Of a DNA stretch of 23,082 bases, positions 12,987 through 23,071 are shown one piece after another (the stretch's first letter is position 1; the number at the start of each line of letters is the position of its first letter). Source of the stretch: a virus; the IMG/VR virus record IMGVR_UViG_3300032038_006582, positions 1 through 23,082 of that record. The stretch is one strand, 5' to 3'. The position numbers and the translations under genes are program-made. The notes beneath the pieces were generated by a model. It had not been told where the DNA came from and did no database searches. It worked only from the letters and a program-made list of their open reading frames with translations.

Positions 12987-15900
12987 TTAGAAGAAACCAT
13001 TAGGATAATTCGGACCCTGATAACTATGAATAGTCCCAGGAACATTACCATATTTTGGGTTATTTAAGTGGTTGCCCCAAGGCTTACGATACTTCAACAC
13101 AGGGTCCACATACCGCCACTTCCCCGTGCTAATAGTGGTAATCTTACCCAAAACATGACCATCACGACCGCGACTAGTATGCACATACTCCAACCTTAAT
13201 GTTTCAGTGCAACCGGCAGCATCCATAAGGGTAAACATGAACCTTGTACTATCACAACAATTCGCACCCTTCACCTTCATAACATAGGTTGGTGAACGCC
13301 TGAAATTATCATAATAATCATACCTAAGATTACTCTTTTTACCACACCACGCAGCAATCTTCTTAGCCGCTGCCAAACCTGTACTATTGCCAACTATGTT
13401 TTTGGCAAGTTGGACTAGGTTCTTATTGATCGTGTAACTCTGGGTTCTTGTTTTACTGGACTCAACATTCTTGGCTTTGACGGTCTTTGTGACTGTGTCA
13501 TAGTACATCTTACCCTTTTTAAGGGTGTAGGCTTCGGTTTTCTTGCTTATTACTGGTTTCTTGTACATTTTCAACTTTTTAGGGTTGCTTCCGTGGTTTG
13601 CACCAGTAATTGTTGAGAAATCGGCATCGCATTTTTTACAGAATATGTGTCCTTCGGCTGAGCCTCCTTCTCTTTTGCCTGTGGCTGGGAATTTTCCCCA
13701 GTTCGCAGATTCATTACCTGCCCAGAAGATACTCCAATACAATTCCTTACTGCCACAGAATGGACATTTCCTTTTAAACACGGTTTTATAAAATTTGTAA
13801 CCATATTTTGCAAGTTCACCACTCGCGGATGGTCGACCAATAGCCATCAAGTATTTACCATCAGGTGATACACCATACTTTGAGTAGTATCGTTTGACAC
13901 TCTTTGTAGACTTACTTGTCTTTTTAGTGGTTTTCTGCTTCAAATTCGCAGGGGTCTTCTTCTTGGTATCCACAGGCTTCGGCGGTGTCTCCACAGTACC
14001 AGACACATTGACCTGGACAGTATTTGTGGCTTCTTCGTACTCTTCATCACCACCAAAACTTATGACCAGTTCGTAGTCTCCTGGGTTAAATTGCAGGTTC
14101 AGCCTTGCGTAACCATCAGCATCAGTCAACCTGTTATATGTGTGCTTGGTCAAGGTCTTACTACTGCCATTATCCTTTACCGTGTACAAGGCGAAAGTAA
14201 CCAGTTTATTTGCCAAGTATTGGGTGCTATAGGTGTCGGTCTCATCATAATCCAAATTCTCAAGCCTAATACTGTATAATTTTTCATTCGGATATTTAAA
14301 TGATACATTACTTGCAAGGATGCTTGTTTCCTTTGTCACTGCTTTAATATTATTCAAACTATAATTGGATAACTCAATAGTGTTTTTGGCTACATCATGA
14401 GCCTCCTTATGAGTCTTAACCACACGGGCAGTAACAAGTTCTGAATAATCAGGGAGTTTCACATAAACCTTATCGTGCAGTTCATAATCGTTGAAGCTTC
14501 CTTCTTTCCGTAGGTTAGCGACATCTAAGGTGATGTTGAATTCCCTAGTGGATTTTTCTTTGAGTTTCATTGCAACATCATTGTAGATTGCTAGGGCTAC
14601 TTCGTCACTGGTTTCGACGGTTCCCATCTTCGGACGATTCAACAAGAAATCGTCTCTTACATCTGGGTTGCCATACACGGTTGTGTATTCCATATTAGGA
14701 ATATTTTCGGTGCTTACGTGCAAATCACCCGCCAGTTTCGTATATGGTGCTTTCCAGTAAGCAGTTGCTCGCCAGTATTCCCATTGACTATTAGATGCGG
14801 TTTGTGTGTCAACTTGGTCTTGTGGGTGGTATGGTCTCTGCCAGAAATTACTCTTGGAACTTGCTCCCATTTGCTGCTGTGCCATACTGGTATCATTCGC
14901 TTGTATCTGCACCTTCTCGATTATCATCGGTATTGTTTCGCCCTTAGTGACGGATAGGTTCTTCCACGCTGTTATGATGTTGTTCATATCATTCCTTGTA
15001 AGACCATTATTGTCATCAAGGCTTAGGATTGGGCTTATGCTGGTGAATGTTTCGGTCTCATCTGTCTCGAATTGCACATTCTCCAAGTTAAAACCGAAAT
15101 CCAATACTTCCTCGTGCACATGACCTATTTCACGATTGATACAAGTCATATACAAGATTAACTCGTTTTCAGTATCATAGATTGTAAAGTAGCAATCATC
15201 TGGAATGGTAGTGTTTTCAATAGTGTCAGGGTCATCTGCTACTGTGATGAAGCTTTTAGGTTGAACACCACAAACATCAGAGGGTGCGACGGCGAAGCTT
15301 TTACCCTTGATTTCCATTCCGAGTGTGCCGTGATTCATTGAAAGGCAGATTACAATATTTGCATCACTGCCATCTAATCCGACTGTTTCAGCGTTCCAAC
15401 TGAGTGGTGTGTCTCCTTCCTTGTAGACCAACCCATCACTATTCAACAATTCACCATCAGAGTTAGTGATTCGGAGTTCCGTACTTGTTGGATCTATATT
15501 TGCTAATACGGTTCCATCTTCAAAGTTTACTATGTCGTCTTCTTCTTCGACGTCTTCGTAGGTGTCGGTTGTTGGGTTGCCATCGGAGTCGTAGATTTCT
15601 GGGGTTGTATTGTTTTCGGTTACGAAATCATACTCTATATTCAATTGCCAGTTCTTGCTTACATCTATCGGATTCAAGAAGTCAAGGTAACGGTGGATTG
15701 TATTGTTTAAACAATCCTTCTCGTACCTTGTAACAAAGACATTACCGGTTTCCTCTTCAATATACCTTAACAATGCCATCAAGTTAATTGTACCATTCAA
15801 GCTAATATGGTTGTAGGCTTTGTTCATTGCATATTGTACTACTCCAATATTAAACCAGTCTCCAAACCAGTAATGCAGGGCATTGTAGTCAATATTCACT

Positions 15901-16277
15901 GATTGTTGTCCATTGGTTACACTTACATCAAAACCATTGCTACTGGTTAGTTCGTTCTGTGTGAATAATGGAGCATAGTTAAGCTCGACTAATACTTCTT
16001 CCAATTCAGTATGGAAACTGTTCTCTTGGTATACATCGGTCTCGACTGGTGTGTTTATGACGTATAGGCAGTCGGTTAGGTTGTTGTCGCCACTTATCCA
16101 GACCTTATTACCAATTCGGAATAGTTGCTTGTCTTCGTGCAAGTCTTGGAACTGGTAGGTGAAATCAAGTGAGCGTAAGCCTCCTTGTTCGTGTGTCTCT
16201 GTCAAGTCACATAATTCTGGGTCGAGGAATCGTAGGAATTCCTCATCACCAGTCATTACAACAATAGTTAATCCCAT
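12987..16277 (-). CDS. Tail-tip / tail-associated lysin (Tal-like hub) with an Ig-like domain, a Cys4 domain and a C-terminal transglutaminase-like Cys protease
   Basis: Follows the Dit gene and has a hub-like N-terminus. TD-x-DG-x-A...G-x-Y...F-x-G-D Ig repeat at about aa 666-758; CPFC (838/841)...CKKC (880/883); NCCD (Cys1007), GHV (His1041), YVDP (Asp1058). Confidence 0.8.
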
Positions 16278-16280
16278 ATT

Positions 16281-19200
16281 TTACCATCTCTCCGTAAATT
16301 CAACTTTCCTTACAGTACAACCAGTGGCGTTGAAGTTGTATTCTCCGTGCAGATTAAACCAATCACTGTTGAAGTCTACATACTTGCTTAGGTCGGTTGG
16401 TTCTGTATCGTCCTCGTTGGTTCGGTGGTATACTTTCCGTTCTTCGCAATCTATCTCAACAATACCTGTTTGCCAGTTTCCATCGTAGCCGATTGTGAAT
16501 TTTTGACCGGTTACGGTTTCTTCTAGTGTGATTACATCCTCTTGTGCTTTTAGGCTTATGATTGGATTAACTGATGCTATTCCTTGTACAAAACCGGTAA
16601 TATTTGTGCTGGTGTTTTGTTTTGAATAGGCTGTACCTGCTGGTATTGTTAGTTTGGCTTTGATATTATAGGAGCCTGCACTTGTGCTTATGTCCATTGT
16701 ATCGGTCATAATATACTCGAAGTAGACATCAGGGTAATGAGTGAATTCGATCGTGTTTGGTATTGGTCGGTTGTACTCGTCTTTTTCATTTACTAATAGT
16801 TTGGTTAGTTGTCTGAGCATATCAGTTGATGTTTGTAGGTCGCATTCGCCGATGCTCATTTCGAGTTCTATGGTTTTTTCTCTGATGTTTTGTCGGTAGG
16901 CATCATTGGTGTCGGTTCCATCGATTGACAAGAAGCTTGTGTCGGTGTCTAATCCCTCAGGTATTTTGGCATCTTCTATGAAGGCACCATAGTAGGATAG
17001 GTCTTCGCCGTTGACTTTAACATTAATCAGTTGCTCTTGCAGTTCTTCAATGTAGAAGCCTATTCTGATGTCTCCGAAGTTTAGGTTGGCTTCTTCTTCG
17101 AGTAGGATATTGTTGGCGAAGATTTGCACCTCCCAATCCTCTAAACTGGTTAGGTCGGTGGTTTGGAAGCCCCAAAGGTCGCCTAAGCCTCCGAACTTGA
17201 ACTCGGTTTGGGAGTCGATAGTGTCTTGGTTGTTAATGATTATGGTTCTTTCACCGGTTTCACCAGATGGGCTTACTATTTTGGCGGATAAGACCATTTC
17301 ATCGGCTTGCTCGATGGTTCCAGTTACCTCTATTCCACGGATACTATGGGTTTCGTCGGTTCCGTAGTCCTCATCTAATGGGAAATCGTAGAGTATGATT
17401 GTTTCTGTGGTGTCGAGGTTTGGTATACTGGTTTCCGAGATATTCTCATCAAGCAAATTACTTATTGGTTCCGGATAATTGCCAGTAGGTTCTCTTCCCT
17501 TGTACACCTGTTTCTCGATAATTGCGGGATTATTATGGGTTATTGTACCCATATCATAACCAAGGGTGGTTGTTTCTGGGTAATCCCCTGTGAATATTAG
17601 GTATAATGGGTAGTTTTCGTTGTAGGTGAATTCGCATTCTAGGTTGTTGTACTCGTTCACAATGGTTGGTGCATTAGACCAGTATTCGGCATTCTCGAGT
17701 ATTTGACTTGGTGTTAGGTTCTCGTAATCGGTAGTATCGGTTATGGTCTCGGTTACTTCCCCAGTCTCAGGGTCAGTAGTCTTAGTTATGGTTATATTAT
17801 CACTTATAGCATTGTTGAATACTCCTAAACGATTATTCTTGTACCAATCCCTCTCATAAATATCACTTGTAGTATGTTTGACATCTGATTGCAGGACATA
17901 CGGGTAACCAGTACCCAAACGGTCAAACTCTTCCTCGGTCGGTTCAAGGAAAGTAAAGTTAGGAATGGTTAAATCATTTTCTTCTGGCACCACTTCAAAG
18001 AAATAACTGATGTCTGGGGTCAAATCCTTAAAGGTATCCCAATTATTGACATTCCTATCATCATCATAAATCAACTCATCCAATCCAAAGCAATAGAACA
18101 CATATTTGCCCACATCTGTGCCTCTGAAAACAGCCTCCTTATACATTTCAGGTGGCTTCCAGAGACCCCAATACCGACCGTGCTGATAGAATGTGATTGT
18201 CGCCCATTGGATAGAAGGGTCATCGAAAGTGGTTTTCCATTGCATTTTTGTGTTTTGTTCAAGTAACAAAGGTTCTCCTCTATCATTGCAAGGAAAACCG
18301 AATATAATAATATCCTTTTTGGTTAATACCTTTTCAAGACTGTTAGTTATCGCTTCGTTTACTAATGTCTTAACCCATTTGATTGGCACCGGCACATTAT
18401 CATCATCAGTAATATTAGGTGCGGAGTCTGGTGCTGTTTCCTCACTTGTTACTGGTCTTTCACGAATACTAACCGATTTAGTAGCATTCGCACCATTCAA
18501 ACTCTCACTCAATGTAAATGTTCCAGTGAAAACATCAGACCCACTAGGATAAGTCACACTCGGTGTAAACCTTAATGTAACATTACTAGTACCACTACCA
18601 CCAACATTCGGCTCCCAACGATAAGTCGTATTATTAACCTTGGTAACCCGTCCAGTTCCCTCATAAGACTCATAAGAGAACCCAATAGGAGTCGTAAGTG
18701 TCAATGATGGATTATACCTTGTAAGGTTCTTATTACTAATCCTTAAAGTAACATCAAAAGCCTCACCATTATAACCATCAACCGCATCAACCTTAACAGT
18801 ATAATCACTCAGCACATATTCGACACGGACACGAACATAACTAATCCTCAGGTAACCATTCCATTTATTGGTATTTGTCGGATAATTGATACGGCAACCG
18901 AAATTGCCACTATTTAGTTGTGCACGTGTAATCTTGCCCTTAACATTAAAGGTCTTGGTATTAGTTTTCATACTAGTGGTAGGTGCTACGCCCTTCGCAC
19001 TAAAACCACTCACACCCAACAATGATATAGTTGGAGCAGGAATATTCACAACCCTCTTCGGATACTTGCTACTATAATCACTGCCAGTATTCTTACGATG
19101 CCTATATTCCACGATAATCTTAGTCGGTTCCGCCCCGAGTGGCAGATTAAAACCGAACCCAGTACAACTAATCGTACTTGGTCGGTTCTTAGTCTCCGCC

Positions 19201-19337
19201 TTACCCTGAATAAGCACACTTGATACGGCATGACTATCCTCAGCAGCATTACGAATATTACTCAAATAATCAAAGGTTACATAATGACCACCAGTGGTCT
19301 GAGTCACGGTACCTGCATACTTTGTTACTGATGCCAT
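16281..19337 (-). CDS. Distal tail protein (Dit-like, C-terminal about 250 aa) with an N-terminal adhesin-like extension of about 770 aa
   Basis: Follows the tape measure gene. C-terminal VKVNGEDLSYYG...IDGTD...REKTIELE...IEF...PDVYF is a siphovirus Dit pattern. The N-terminus has beta-rich jelly-roll-like and DUF11-like segments. Confidence 0.7.
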   Translation of the reverse strand: MASVTKYAGTVTQTTGGHYVTFDYLSNIRNAAEDSHAVSSVLIQGKAETKNRPSTISCTGFGFNLPLGAEPTKIIVEYRHRKNTGSDYSSKYPKRVVNIPAPTISLLGVSGFSAKGVAPTTSMKTNTKTFNVKGKITRAQLNSGNFGCRINYPTNTNKWNGYLRISYVRVRVEYVLSDYTVKVDAVDGYNGEAFDVTLRISNKNLTRYNPSLTLTTPIGFSYESYEGTGRVTKVNNTTYRWEPNVGGSGTSNVTLRFTPSVTYPSGSDVFTGTFTLSESLNGANATKSVSIRERPVTSEETAPDSAPNITDDDNVPVPIKWVKTLVNEAITNSLEKVLTKKDIIIFGFPCNDRGEPLLLEQNTKMQWKTTFDDPSIQWATITFYQHGRYWGLWKPPEMYKEAVFRGTDVGKYVFYCFGLDELIYDDDRNVNNWDTFKDLTPDISYFFEVVPEENDLTIPNFTFLEPTEEEFDRLGTGYPYVLQSDVKHTTSDIYERDWYKNNRLGVFNNAISDNITITKTTDPETGEVTETITDTTDYENLTPSQILENAEYWSNAPTIVNEYNNLECEFTYNENYPLYLIFTGDYPETTTLGYDMGTITHNNPAIIEKQVYKGREPTGNYPEPISNLLDENISETSIPNLDTTETIILYDFPLDEDYGTDETHSIRGIEVTGTIEQADEMVLSAKIVSPSGETGERTIIINNQDTIDSQTEFKFGGLGDLWGFQTTDLTSLEDWEVQIFANNILLEEEANLNFGDIRIGFYIEELQEQLINVKVNGEDLSYYGAFIEDAKIPEGLDTDTSFLSIDGTDTNDAYRQNIREKTIELEMSIGECDLQTSTDMLRQLTKLLVNEKDEYNRPIPNTIEFTHYPDVYFEYIMTDTMDISTSAGSYNIKAKLTIPAGTAYSKQNTSTNITGFVQGIASVNPIISLKAQEDVITLEETVTGQKFTIGYDGNWQTGIVEIDCEERKVYHRTNEDDTEPTDLSKYVDFNSDWFNLHGEYNFNATGCTVRKVEFTERW

Positions 19338-19340
19338 ACT

Positions 19341-21365
19341 TTACACTCCTTTTGCACGATTATTCCGTGCCAAAATCCTATTCTTCGCCCTACTATCCAA
19401 ACTTTGGAAATCATTATTATTCACCAACACAGACAACACACTCTTATCAGTCAAACTCTCAACTAATGCATTCCTTAAAACAACCTCATCAATATTAGAT
19501 GGAACATTTTTTAGATCCAAACTCAAATTAACATCATTTGTGGTGTGGATTTCCATCTTCTCAATACCACTTACTTGTGATGGTGTTAGGTCTTCGCCAC
19601 CATAAGCACCGCCTAGTGGCAGGTCCTCACCACCAAAAGCACCACCAATAACCGGAATACTATTAGCCTTAGCCTTAATCTGATTAACCACACGGACAAT
19701 ACTATTATAAGCATTACGGAATGGTTGAGTCAGCTTATTTGTGATTCCACCTATATTGATGCCACCAGTCAAACCATTAGCCGCACCTTTAATCCTATTT
19801 ATTACGCTATGTATACTATTATAACCTGCGGTGAATGGTGCCAATAATATATGAGCAATACTGGATATAGCACCTCTTATCATACCAGGCAAAGCACGGA
19901 ACCAATTCCTTATGCCGTTAATGATTGCTTTCACACGATTGCCAGTAGCAATCATAGTGGAAATGAACAACTTAACCGCGGCGATAACCAATCGTATCGG
20001 AGCAGTTAACAATCTCCAAGAAGTACCAATATTATTAATCATAACCCTCACAATATCAAACTTACTGCTACTGCTCACACCAAAGAACTTAAGCACGGCA
20101 TTAACCACACTACTTACTACTGGCACGAGCCAATTCCAAGCCGCAGTCAAAGCAGATAAGAATGATTGTACATCAGGGTGGTTAATGAAAGCATTCCATA
20201 ATCTTTGAATACCAGCCCATACTGCATCAATCATACTAGATGCATCAGTCCACCATCCAAAGGCTTTACCAATCTCATAAATAAGCACAACAATAGCCGC
20301 ACCAATCGCAATGAATGGCAACCACGGAGCCAATAAAGCCCATGATGCAGTAATCGCAGGCAACAAACTCGCTTCAAACAAGGTCATCGCTCCTTGAACA
20401 GCCATTATTGCAGGAACCAGTAAAGCAAAACCGGCAACAACTGCACCAATCACACTTATAATTCCACCTAAAGGACCATTCATGACACTACTGACAGTAT
20501 CTCCAACAAAGTTCAATACTCGACCGGCAACTTCCAAAGCAGGCACCAATACTGGTAACAACACTTCACCTGCTAATCTTTCAAGCCGTCCTTTCGCGAT
20601 ATCTATCTGTGCCTGCAAACCGGCCCAACTCTTCTTATACTCCTCATTCGCGGTCTTACCCTCATTCATGCTTGCGGCCATACCAAGTGCGGCGGCTCTT
20701 TGGTTGGTGTCCATGGTCGCCCATTTGGCATTAACATCATCAATGGTGGCTCCTTGAATGCCAAGAGCATTACCCAACTCTTCAACAGTGATACCAGTAT
20801 TCGCTAATGTTCTCTCCATAACGGATGATCGCATCGCCAATCCGCTCATCTTGTCAGCCATTGTACCGATGTCAGTTCCAAGGAGTGTTGCTTGTGCACC
20901 GGCTCCTTGCATCATTGACTTGAAACTACCTATATCAGTGATACCTCTTGCAGTAGCTGTGATGAAGGATTCTCTGATTTCACCACCTGCTCTTCCAGTT
21001 TCAGATGATAACTGGCTCACTGCATCGGTCATTGCATTGACATCAATACCGGCTCCTTCTGCTTCCAACCTTGCACGCATCAAGGAGTCCTCGAAGTTAC
21101 CTGCCTTGTCGGCGACATCCCATAATCCTTCCGCTAACTGGTTGAATATCTCTGCACCTGCCAAGCCACTAATGATTGAGCTTATCTGTTCAAGTGGGTC
21201 TTCGGCGGTACTGGCGGATTCTTCCATCTCATCCAATCCTTGACTGCCTTGCTCTGCACCGCCTTGTACAGATTCGCCCATATTCTCGGCGGCACCTGTA
21301 ACACTCTCAAAGGTATCGGAAGCCTCATCCACTGCACGAAGTATGACTTCTAACTCTTCTTCCAT
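19341..21365 (-). CDS. Tail tape measure protein, 674 aa
   Basis: Ala/Gly-rich helical protein with the N-terminal VILRAVDEAS motif and a central hydrophobic segment, located after the chaperone genes. Confidence 0.9.
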   Translation of the reverse strand: MEEELEVILRAVDEASDTFESVTGAAENMGESVQGGAEQGSQGLDEMEESASTAEDPLEQISSIISGLAGAEIFNQLAEGLWDVADKAGNFEDSLMRARLEAEGAGIDVNAMTDAVSQLSSETGRAGGEIRESFITATARGITDIGSFKSMMQGAGAQATLLGTDIGTMADKMSGLAMRSSVMERTLANTGITVEELGNALGIQGATIDDVNAKWATMDTNQRAAALGMAASMNEGKTANEEYKKSWAGLQAQIDIAKGRLERLAGEVLLPVLVPALEVAGRVLNFVGDTVSSVMNGPLGGIISVIGAVVAGFALLVPAIMAVQGAMTLFEASLLPAITASWALLAPWLPFIAIGAAIVVLIYEIGKAFGWWTDASSMIDAVWAGIQRLWNAFINHPDVQSFLSALTAAWNWLVPVVSSVVNAVLKFFGVSSSSKFDIVRVMINNIGTSWRLLTAPIRLVIAAVKLFISTMIATGNRVKAIINGIRNWFRALPGMIRGAISSIAHILLAPFTAGYNSIHSVINRIKGAANGLTGGINIGGITNKLTQPFRNAYNSIVRVVNQIKAKANSIPVIGGAFGGEDLPLGGAYGGEDLTPSQVSGIEKMEIHTTNDVNLSLDLKNVPSNIDEVVLRNALVESLTDKSVLSVLVNNNDFQSLDSRAKNRILARNNRAKGV

Positions 21366-21368
21366 ATC

Positions 21369-21578
21369 TTACCTCTTTTGTTTTTTGAATTTCACTCCGT
21401 TCGCTTCGCAAAGGGCAGTAATTTTAGTATCCAAAGTCTCCTTGAAACGTATGTCTTCTGCTGCTCCTATGCTAAAAAAAGTTTGCTGGCATAAGGTCTG
21501 CTCCCAAAAACTGGGTGCGTGGATTATGCCAGCACGGTATTGTTCGTAGAGTATTCTGCCTTCATTACTCTTTGCGAA
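21369..21578 (-). CDS. Frameshift extension of the tail assembly chaperone (gpGT-like C-terminal part), reached by a +1 shift
   Basis: The frame FAKSNEGRILYEQYRAG...GVKFKKQKR* is open from 21587 to 21369, has no start codon near its beginning, and ends 3 nt before the tape measure ATG. Confidence 0.8.
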   Translation of the reverse strand, partial: FAKSNEGRILYEQYRAGIIHAPSFWEQTLCQQTFFSIGAAEDIRFKETLDTKITALCEANGVKFKKQKR

Positions 21579-21990
21579 AGTTTTTAATTATTGTTAAATC
21601 GTTATCGTTAATGTTGCTTATGCTGATTATGTGTCTGAATATTTGTTCTGGTACTCCTGCTGGTAGGTTTTGTATTGTGTCTGGTTTCACGGTTTCGCCA
21701 TTGACACTAAGGCCATAAGCAACTCCCTTGTATAATGCTTCTGTTTGGTAATGGGTGAATTCCCCTGCATTAATATCCACATCTGTATTGTTGGTTTCTA
21801 CTTTTGTCCTTTTGCCTTTGGCTCCCAATCCTACTTTCATCACGAAACCCTTTTTCTCAATGGTTTGCAATTCTGATAATTCGCCACTGGTTAATGGTCT
21901 TATCATTATTTCCTCATCATTGATTGTGATTGTTTCGGTTGCTTCTGTGCCGAGGGTTAGTTTCTGTAATATTTCAAGGTTACTCATCAT
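21565..21990 (-). CDS. Tail assembly chaperone (gpG-like), 141 aa
   Basis: Lies between the tail tube and tape measure genes; IMIRPLTSGEL is a typical chaperone motif. Confidence 0.8.
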   Translation of the reverse strand: MMSNLEILQKLTLGTEATETITINDEEIMIRPLTSGELSELQTIEKKGFVMKVGLGAKGKRTKVETNNTDVDINAGEFTHYQTEALYKGVAYGLSVNGETVKPDTIQNLPAGVPEQIFRHIISISNINDNDLTIIKNFRKE

Positions 21991-22030: not shown

Positions 22031-23071
22031 TTAGTTGGAGGCGGTGAGTTCTTCCTGGTAATTCATAAGTTTTACATACATATCGGTTTCGACTTCGGTT
22101 CCACTTGCTAGTGCGACCTTGGCACTGCCAAGGCTTTCGAGTGTCATTGTCACTTCCACTGTATCTGTTCCGCTCATACTGTATTCGACATTCACGGTGC
22201 ATCTTGGGAATACGATCTTGCAGTTTATGTCGGTGTCTTCGCAGTGTGCGATATTAACTTCAAGTGGCAATTGTAATAACTTACAACTGCTTGGTTCTAA
22301 TACTCCGACTTCCCCGTACTGTGCATTGAGTATGCTTCTCACAGTATCGGATGTTAATGTGGTGGTAATGGATACTTCGTTTTCTCTTTTACCTGCTTGC
22401 GCTCTTTTCTGAGGATACCTGCTGCCTAATCCAATGGTACTGTCTACATCATGGTTGTTGTTTCCTTCAAATGAGAAGGCAGTAGATACTCCATCAAGTG
22501 GCAGGTTATTCAATTTAAGGCTCACATCGTAGAACATGATGAATATTTGTTCTGCGGTTAACTCATCAGGCCTTGTGAATGTTTCGCCATCTGTTCCGAT
22601 TATTCCTGCTTTTTCAGTCTTGTATATCCAATCAGCACCGACAGTCATTGATTCATCAGATACTTCAAGGCTCATTCCATCACATAATAAACCGTACAAG
22701 TATTTTTTGAGCATATCATAGACTGCTATTCCACGGAAACTTGGCAGTTCCTTGCCTTCGCCACCATAGAATTCATGAGTGTGAACATCACCATTACCGG
22801 CGGTGTAAACATAATTATCCAAGTAGCCACGGAAGTACCAAGTTAGTTGTTGTAAGTCTGCATCGGCACTAGTTGAGCCGGTTGGTTTCATTATCCCTGC
22901 TCTTGCCCTTTTATTCATACGGGAACCACCGGATTTGGTGATTGGTTCGTCATTAAGTTTGAACTCGACTTCTTCGGCTTGGTTCCAGAAGTTAGGGTCA
23001 AATGAGGATTTACTGACACTAGTGTCGCCGTATGTTTCTTCTAATTCTAATCCGAATCCTCTATCTACCAT
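22031..23071 (-). CDS. Major tail (tube) protein, 346 aa
   Basis: N-terminal GFGLELEETYG and an acidic beta-rich sequence, positioned upstream of the chaperone and tape measure genes. Confidence 0.8.
   Translation of the reverse strand: MVDRGFGLELEETYGDTSVSKSSFDPNFWNQAEEVEFKLNDEPITKSGGSRMNKRARAGIMKPTGSTSADADLQQLTWYFRGYLDNYVYTAGNGDVHTHEFYGGEGKELPSFRGIAVYDMLKKYLYGLLCDGMSLEVSDESMTVGADWIYKTEKAGIIGTDGETFTRPDELTAEQIFIMFYDVSLKLNNLPLDGVSTAFSFEGNNNHDVDSTIGLGSRYPQKRAQAGKRENEVSITTTLTSDTVRSILNAQYGEVGVLEPSSCKLLQLPLEVNIAHCEDTDINCKIVFPRCTVNVEYSMSGTDTVEVTMTLESLGSAKVALASGTEVETDMYVKLMNYQEELTASN

Follow-up and report, generated by a model that had tools for sequence, protein, structure and literature searches.

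[quoted passage not shown]

The window is the whole stretch of DNA that was analysed, 23,082 nucleotides of the virus record IMGVR_UViG_3300032038_006582. Its tail genes all lie on the minus strand, in the order tail tube, an ORF of 141 aa, around 200 nt without a called gene, tape measure, a Dit-like gene and a tail-tip gene. The 141-aa ORF is here called G and the extension that follows it in the +1 frame is called T; the features of this region are as follows.

22031-23071, minus strand: gene for the tail tube (major tail) protein, 346 aa, directly 5' of the chaperone gene; match to phrog_35581, E about 4.5e-101
21565-21990, minus strand: G, tail assembly chaperone, 141 aa, zero frame, with stop TAA at 21567-21565 and a GGTGA ribosome-binding motif just 5'
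21588-21590, minus strand: last +1-frame stop (TAA) before the junction, which marks the 5' limit for a shift in this genome
21574-21579, minus strand: predicted shift site TTT_CGC, with P-site UUU at 21579-21577 and zero-frame A-site CGC at 21576-21574
21372-21578, minus strand: T, the +1-frame extension read from UUC, 69 codons (F and 68 further aa), with no start of its own
21369-21371, minus strand: TAA, stop of the T frame, 3 nt 5' of the tape-measure start
21369-21990, minus strand: predicted GT fusion, 206 aa, junction ...IIKNF/AKSNEG..., with TTTC read as one step
[quoted passage not shown]

The tape-measure gene has a ribosome-binding motif, GAGGT at 21375-21371, which overlaps the 3' end of T. 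The T stop and the tape-measure ATG lie in the same frame with GAT between them (21363-21371, minus strand); this shared phasing is probably incidental, since it is not kept in relatives. Beyond the tape measure, a 1018-aa protein (16281-19337, minus strand) ends in an SPP1 Dit C-terminal domain (PF22768, E 1.9e-8), and the 1096-aa tail-tip protein (12987-16277, minus strand) carries a C-terminal transglutaminase-core domain (PF01841, E 3.6e-5).

The tube protein is 57% identical to the annotated tail tube of vir075, a virus of Methanobrevibacter gottschalkii, 34% identical to that of Drs3 and 25% to that of PhiF3. The host of the window virus is presumably an archaeon of the Methanobacteriales, since all of the named relatives of its tube and chaperone proteins infect Methanobrevibacter, Methanobacterium or Methanothermobacter, which belong to this order.

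G matches the tail assembly chaperone family phrog_344 weakly; a Pfam search gave no match for either G or T, and a PDB sequence search with a profile of the G family (alignment A1) returned nothing meaningful. An AlphaFold model of G, built on 50 homologues, reached a pLDDT of 82.6. Its best match in the PDB is the HK97 tail assembly chaperone 2ob9, with a probability of 1.0 and TM-scores of 0.52 and 0.65 (the latter by target) at a weak E value of 0.07, and its matches in BFVD include the Drs3 protein (E 5.7e-5) and many annotated chaperones, haloarchaeal ones included. Judged from this model, G has the tail-assembly-chaperone fold. The layout is also that of a G/GT pair: the tube and tape-measure genes enclose two ORFs, the second of which, in the +1 frame, overlaps the 3' end of the first. 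Longer homologues of 184-207 aa, found in the representative search, were considered as in-frame G-T fusions and rejected; their additional residues are low-complexity zero-frame tails.

The initial annotation had read the end of the chaperone as ATT AAA AAC TTT CGC AAA GAG TAA and had placed there a +1 shift to an extension without an early start codon. The sequence bears out this description of the frames. After the TAA at 21590-21588 the +1 frame is open for 72 codons (21587-21372) as far as the TAA at 21371-21369; GAT and then the tape-measure ATG (21365) come next. The first possible start in this open stretch is a TTG some two thirds along its length, with no ATG, GTG or other TTG before it. 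The -1 frame is closed, with only 19 codons open around the junction, and there is no in-frame X_XXY_YYZ heptamer; reading TTTC as a single step gives a fusion of 206 aa, as had been estimated. A 72-codon open +1 frame is rare by chance, since only 2 of the 504 +1-frame stretches in the 17 long genes of the window reach at least this length, and the geometric expectation is about 0.003. The junction is also the only in-frame TTT_CGN among the 6417 codons of the window.

T has a median pairwise dN/dS of 0.17 in the +1 frame, and its protein, conserved in every relative, aligns from its first residues (alignment A3). By this measure of substitution T is a coding sequence under purifying selection. 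Furthermore, conservation at the junction is higher for the +1 reading, F-[AVS]-K-[ST], than for the zero-frame tail of G, which varies in both length and sequence.

The region was compared across 48 loci, comprising the window, 37 IMG/VR contigs, 8 metagenome contigs with distant representatives, vir075 and PhiF3; the records of Drs3, MSTV1 and HSTV-2 were read separately, outside this table. The 48 loci span 15-93% protein identity and 32-73% GC. A conserved extension in the +1 frame, with the -1 frame closed, is present in 46 of them, and the three separately read records have the same +1 arrangement at TTT_C.

An alignment of 50 representatives (22-52% identity) has only two invariant columns, and one of them is the Phe that stands three residues before the G stop; all 48 loci encode it with TTT. 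This TTT is followed by CGC in 36 loci, CGT in 5, CCT in 2, and CAT, CAG, CTC, CCG and GTT in one each; the following codon begins with C in 47 of the 48 and is CGY in 41. Control columns of the same alignment differ: two Phe columns gave TTC 33 / TTT 5 and TTC 29 / TTT 9, and control Arg columns mostly use AGR, as the invariant Arg31 does in 36 of 48 loci, against CGY in 41 of 41 for the junction Arg. Fisher tests of the junction against the control columns gave p of about 1e-21 for Phe and 1e-22 for Arg; as the sequences share ancestry, which these values leave uncorrected, the real significance is at most that high. By these comparisons the TTT_C motif is conserved at the nucleotide level beyond what the protein would need. 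Part of the invariance of CGC is due to double coding, as its nucleotides contribute to an Arg codon of frame 0 and to an Ala codon of frame +1. The initial annotation had looked to TTT-CGN as the motif to be conserved across methanogen viruses; TTT is indeed fixed, but CGN is not universal.

Three loci deserve separate description. The first (L054:1177-1900) has a GC content of 73%; it carries ACC TTT CGC with a T ORF in the +1 frame, that TTT is the sole one among the 23 Phe codons counted there, and its tube protein is closest to those of archaeal viruses (33% identity to Drs3). The second (L049:68-750, GC 51%) has a T-like ORF in the -1 frame, with the invariant Phe codon inside a perfect A_AAT_TTT heptamer. 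Its -1 reading, K-F-S-A-S-R-E-G, mirrors the +1 reading F-A-K-S-x-E-G of the other loci, and an ATG that overlaps its G stop could start T separately. This lineage appears, from its sequence, to have re-used the same UUU within an A_AAU_UUU heptamer for a -1 shift. The third (L051:67-690) is the locus with GTT after the aligned TTT, where re-pairing from UUU to UUG would be poor; here the open +1 frame extends upstream by over 30 codons and the zero-frame tail has 14 codons, with CCC_A or AAA_G as candidate sites.

The public records of MSTV1, Drs3, PhiF3 and vir075 contain no joined G-T feature; in each of the four, TTT_C is present and T follows in the +1 frame. The junction codons are AAA TTT CCT in Drs3 (L057), CAA TTT CAT in PhiF3 (L013), GAC TTT CCT in vir075 (L002) and GAA TTT CGT in MSTV1 (L058, PP537965.1, 23290-24013). 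The only frameshift mentioned in the MSTV1 paper is a -1 shift in the capsid gene.

T might instead be made as a separate small protein, by independent initiation or by termination-reinitiation near the end of G, without any frameshift. The GenBank record of MSTV1 presents it in this way, as an independent hypothetical protein with a GTG start right after TTC; in the clade with CGT the +1 codon after TTC can be GTG, and the ATG over the G stop of L049 would serve the same purpose. Against this, the window and the 36 CGC loci have GCA, which is no start, as the codon after TTC. In the window, T contains no ATG, GTG or TTG over the first two thirds of its length and lacks a ribosome-binding motif in front of it. 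The +1 residues F-A-K-S-x-E-G are moreover conserved upstream of any possible start, and separate synthesis of T would leave unexplained why TTC never occurs at the junction (0 of 48 loci). We regard it as distinctly unlikely.

Where a frameshift is made can be narrowed by comparison, as the shift must fall between the last stop in the +1 frame and the stop of G. In one locus (L048) this interval is AAC TTT CTC TAA only, in another (L031) it is 14 nt, and in about 15 loci, L016 among them, the +1 frame opens just 5 nt before TTT. Re-pairing of tRNA-Phe from UUU to UUC is the only one common to all of the loci with narrow intervals, and the shift site is therefore pinned to UUU_C. A -1 shift was rejected, the -1 frame being closed, as was a -2 shift, since no codon in the interval re-pairs at -2.

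Recoding of another kind within the same short interval, by a +1 shift at AAA_A or AAA_G, by a -2 shift, or by out-of-frame tRNA binding without slippage in the P site, is very unlikely. The initial annotation had named AAA_A and AAA_G as alternative +1 sites; the window does have both (21585-21582 and 21573-21570), and CGC AAA AAC or CGC AAA GAG occurs in many relatives. Neither survives the comparison. AAA_A is replaced by AAG or CGT in L016, L010 and L011 and lies upstream of the +1-frame stop in many loci, while the AAA_G or AAA_A that would follow CGC is missing in L011, L023, L027, L031, L046, L048, vir075, Drs3 and PhiF3. A mechanism that required no slippage in the P site would also tolerate TTC, which is never seen in the 48 loci.

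That the shift lies in the nucleic acid (transcriptional slippage or editing), or that it reflects an assembly indel or a decaying gene, is extremely unlikely: assembly error is excluded because the same frames recur in 48 loci from independently assembled contigs and in four named methanogen-virus genomes, purifying selection on T speaks against decay, and the longest homopolymers, T3 and A5 (the A5 not conserved), are far shorter than known slippage tracts.

The comparison thus supports a +1 shift at UUU_C as the only reading that fits the related loci, 46 of 48 of which need +1. The slip at UUU_CGC proposed in the initial annotation is supported by the comparison in its direction and its P-site codon; CGN as the next codon turns out not to be strictly kept. 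On these alignments UUU_C is the strict, conserved core of the signal, because seven loci replace CGN, and CGY is a preferred but dispensable context. Drs3 and vir075 (UUU_CCU) and PhiF3 (UUU_CAU) are examples of predicted +1 shifts without CGN. Taken together, we think it very probable that the long form of the chaperone is made by a +1 slip at the conserved UUU_C, giving a G/GT pair in a siphovirus of the Methanobacteriales type.

We infer the slip itself, its efficiency, the role of CGC rarity and the function of T, and the following scheme is offered in that sense. The majority of ribosomes would terminate at the TAA and release G of 141 aa. A minority would pause with peptidyl-tRNA-Phe (anticodon GAA) in the P site, paired to UUU through a G:U wobble, while the A-site CGC awaits a single tRNA-Arg(GCG). 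The tRNA-Phe could then slide one base forward onto UUC, where the C at 21576 completes a full Watson-Crick match, and the next codon would be GCA (21575-21573). Translation would add 68 further residues and end just before the tape-measure gene, yielding a 206-aa G-T fusion whose junction-spanning Glu-C/Asp-N peptide in this virus would be DLTIIKNFAKSNE. By analogy with lambda gpG/gpGT, G might coat the tape measure and the T part might recruit the tail tube protein; a complex prediction for T (A3) with the tube protein (A4) gave no verdict (score 0.00), the fold of the partner itself being uncertain, and speaks neither for nor against such binding.

One Methanobacteriaceae genome with an MSTV1-like provirus, found by a genome scan with the MSTV1 tube protein, was used as a proxy for the host; a scan of genome contigs with a further alignment (A2) found no prophage. 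The proxy encodes one tRNA-Phe(GAA) and one each of tRNA-Arg GCG, UCG, UCU and CCU. Since there is a single tRNA-Phe(GAA), UUU would be read by G:U wobble and UUC would be the better match. With 8 occurrences in 6417 codons (1.25 per 1000), CGC is rarer in the window than every sense codon but one, and in the proxy it is the rarest codon of all (1 of 10230, or 0.1 per 1000); GCA, the A-site codon after the slip, is common (35 per 1000 in the pooled loci). Rarity of CGC together with a common GCA fits a slow A-site codon that favours slippage in the P site. However, a slow A-site codon cannot be the whole story, since relatives have CCT, CAT or CAG after TTT, of which the CCT and CAT variants are not rare codons, and CGC is the commonest Arg codon in the relative with 73% GC.

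No upstream motif resembling a ribosome-binding site was found near the shift site in the window sequence. Downstream, 43 nt past UUU and within the sequence that encodes T, is a hairpin at 21484-21534 (minus strand) with an 11-bp stem GCUGGCAUAAU ... AUUAUGCCAGC; the 121-nt region 21480-21600 folds with a z of -4.6. The nearest relatives retain the hairpin, one pair of which varies among CG, AU and GU; in L016 and L011 it is disrupted, and loci farther away lack it. A role as general stimulator was rejected: the hairpin is confined to the nearest clade, its covariation term is unfavourable and it lies too far from the site.

For archaeal viruses a +1 shift is not a new idea, and one was reportedly predicted for the HSTV-2 chaperone by Pietila/Sencilo in 2013. 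The HSTV-2 record has a chaperone ending in AAG TCC TTT CGC AGA and, further on, TAG, with the T ORF in the +1 frame and the join annotated. Reviews call the HSTV-2 shift "very likely +1" (PMC8211752, PMC5009743). According to Dyall-Smith et al. 2020 (PMC7230728), the HF1 group of haloviruses needs a +1 chaperone fusion and carries TTT-CGC within 15 bp that are fully conserved; these authors likened it to the TTT-CGn of eukaryotic viruses (PA-X, amalgaviruses) and called for experiments. The idea behind the initial annotation had therefore already been published for a sister group (PMC7230728): HSTV-2 and the HF1 group carry TTT-CGC, and the comparison with PA-X and amalgaviruses was made in 2020. 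What is new is that the idea now reaches siphoviruses of methanogens; the cultured MSTV1, Drs3 and PhiF3 are among these, and their records carry no annotated join. The published archaeal +1 cases are sequence predictions in haloarchaeal viruses only, and the same UUU_C(GY) signal would now be found in methanogen viruses, among them MSTV1, a virus of the dominant methanogen of the human gut. The consequences are a simple annotation rule for this chaperone family, a site pinned by comparison to four nucleotides, and culturable systems in which to test it; the picture of tail assembly is unchanged.

There is, in our judgement, an even chance that UUU_C, usually as UUU_CGY, is an ancient +1 signal of one chaperone family that extends from haloarchaeal myoviruses to methanogen siphoviruses. 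If so, it would have been kept through a fall to about 15% protein identity and across 32-73% GC, and it would be an intrinsic property of archaeal tRNA-Phe and ribosomes and not one of a hungry codon. For no archaeon has +1 frameshifting been demonstrated by experiment (PMC8211752), and the cultured systems of MSTV1 with M. smithii, Drs3 with M. formicicum and PhiF3 with M. thermautotrophicus would then allow the first such proof.

The G/GT arrangement is that of tailed phages generally, whose tail-chaperone frameshift, as in lambda gpG/gpGT, is said to be conserved, reportedly by Levin in 1993 and by Xu, Hendrix and Duda in 2004. As in lambda, two overlapping ORFs lie between the major tail and tape-measure genes, the second has no start and G has, in the model, a chaperone fold; lambda makes its fusion by a low-level programmed shift near the end of G, and such a fusion is predicted here. 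The shift differs in kind. That of lambda is a -1 shift at an X_XXY_YYZ heptamer, whereas that of the window would be +1 at UUU_C, and there is no detectable similarity to lambda G or T.

Forward joins are an established minority among the chaperone genes of actinobacteriophages, where the SEA-PHAGES set analysed with PRFect has 350 forward against 2368 backward sites (PMC10885494). The predicted shift of the window resembles these +1 joins, but they belong to bacterial hosts and to unrelated chaperone families. The Gordonia phage Amore2, which has a related tube protein, carries an ordinary -1 site at A_AAA_AAG, and in HHTV-1 the gene order after the tube gene is different.

For the site itself the closest likeness is with RNA viruses of eukaryotes, in which +1 frameshift sites were reportedly described for influenza A PA-X (UCC_UUU_CGU) by Firth in 2012 and for amalgaviruses (UUU_CGN) by Nibert in 2016. 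In these, as is predicted here, tRNA-Phe slips from UUU to UUC while CGN occupies the A site, and an evident stimulatory structure is not required. The PA-X and amalgavirus shifts are made by eukaryotic ribosomes, and peptide sequencing has proven the site; here the ribosome would be archaeal, the site is predicted from sequence, and in relatives CGN can be replaced by other codons that start with C. UUU_Ynn is held to be intrinsically prone to +1 slippage, with UCC_UUU_CGU as the proven PA-X site (PMC5009743), and TCC TTT CGY is present in five of the relatives studied here.

The nearest known system is that of HSTV-2 and the HF1 group (Hafunaviridae). These are myoviruses of halophiles, with about 60% GC, in which TTT is rare and CGC common, whereas the window belongs to a putative methanogen siphovirus of 40% GC in which CGC is rare; protein identity between them is only about 15%, and the methanogen-virus records have no annotated join. 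Even so, an hhalign comparison of the chaperone family of the window (A1) with HSTV-2 gene 22 gave a probability of 91.7% and an E value of 7.9e-7 over 134 columns, the C-terminal FR included, and by this profile match the window chaperone is homologous to that of HSTV-2. In both, the tube and tape-measure genes flank a homologous G and, after it, a second ORF in the +1 frame, TTT CGC stands a few codons before the G stop, and a +1 shift is predicted from the sequence.
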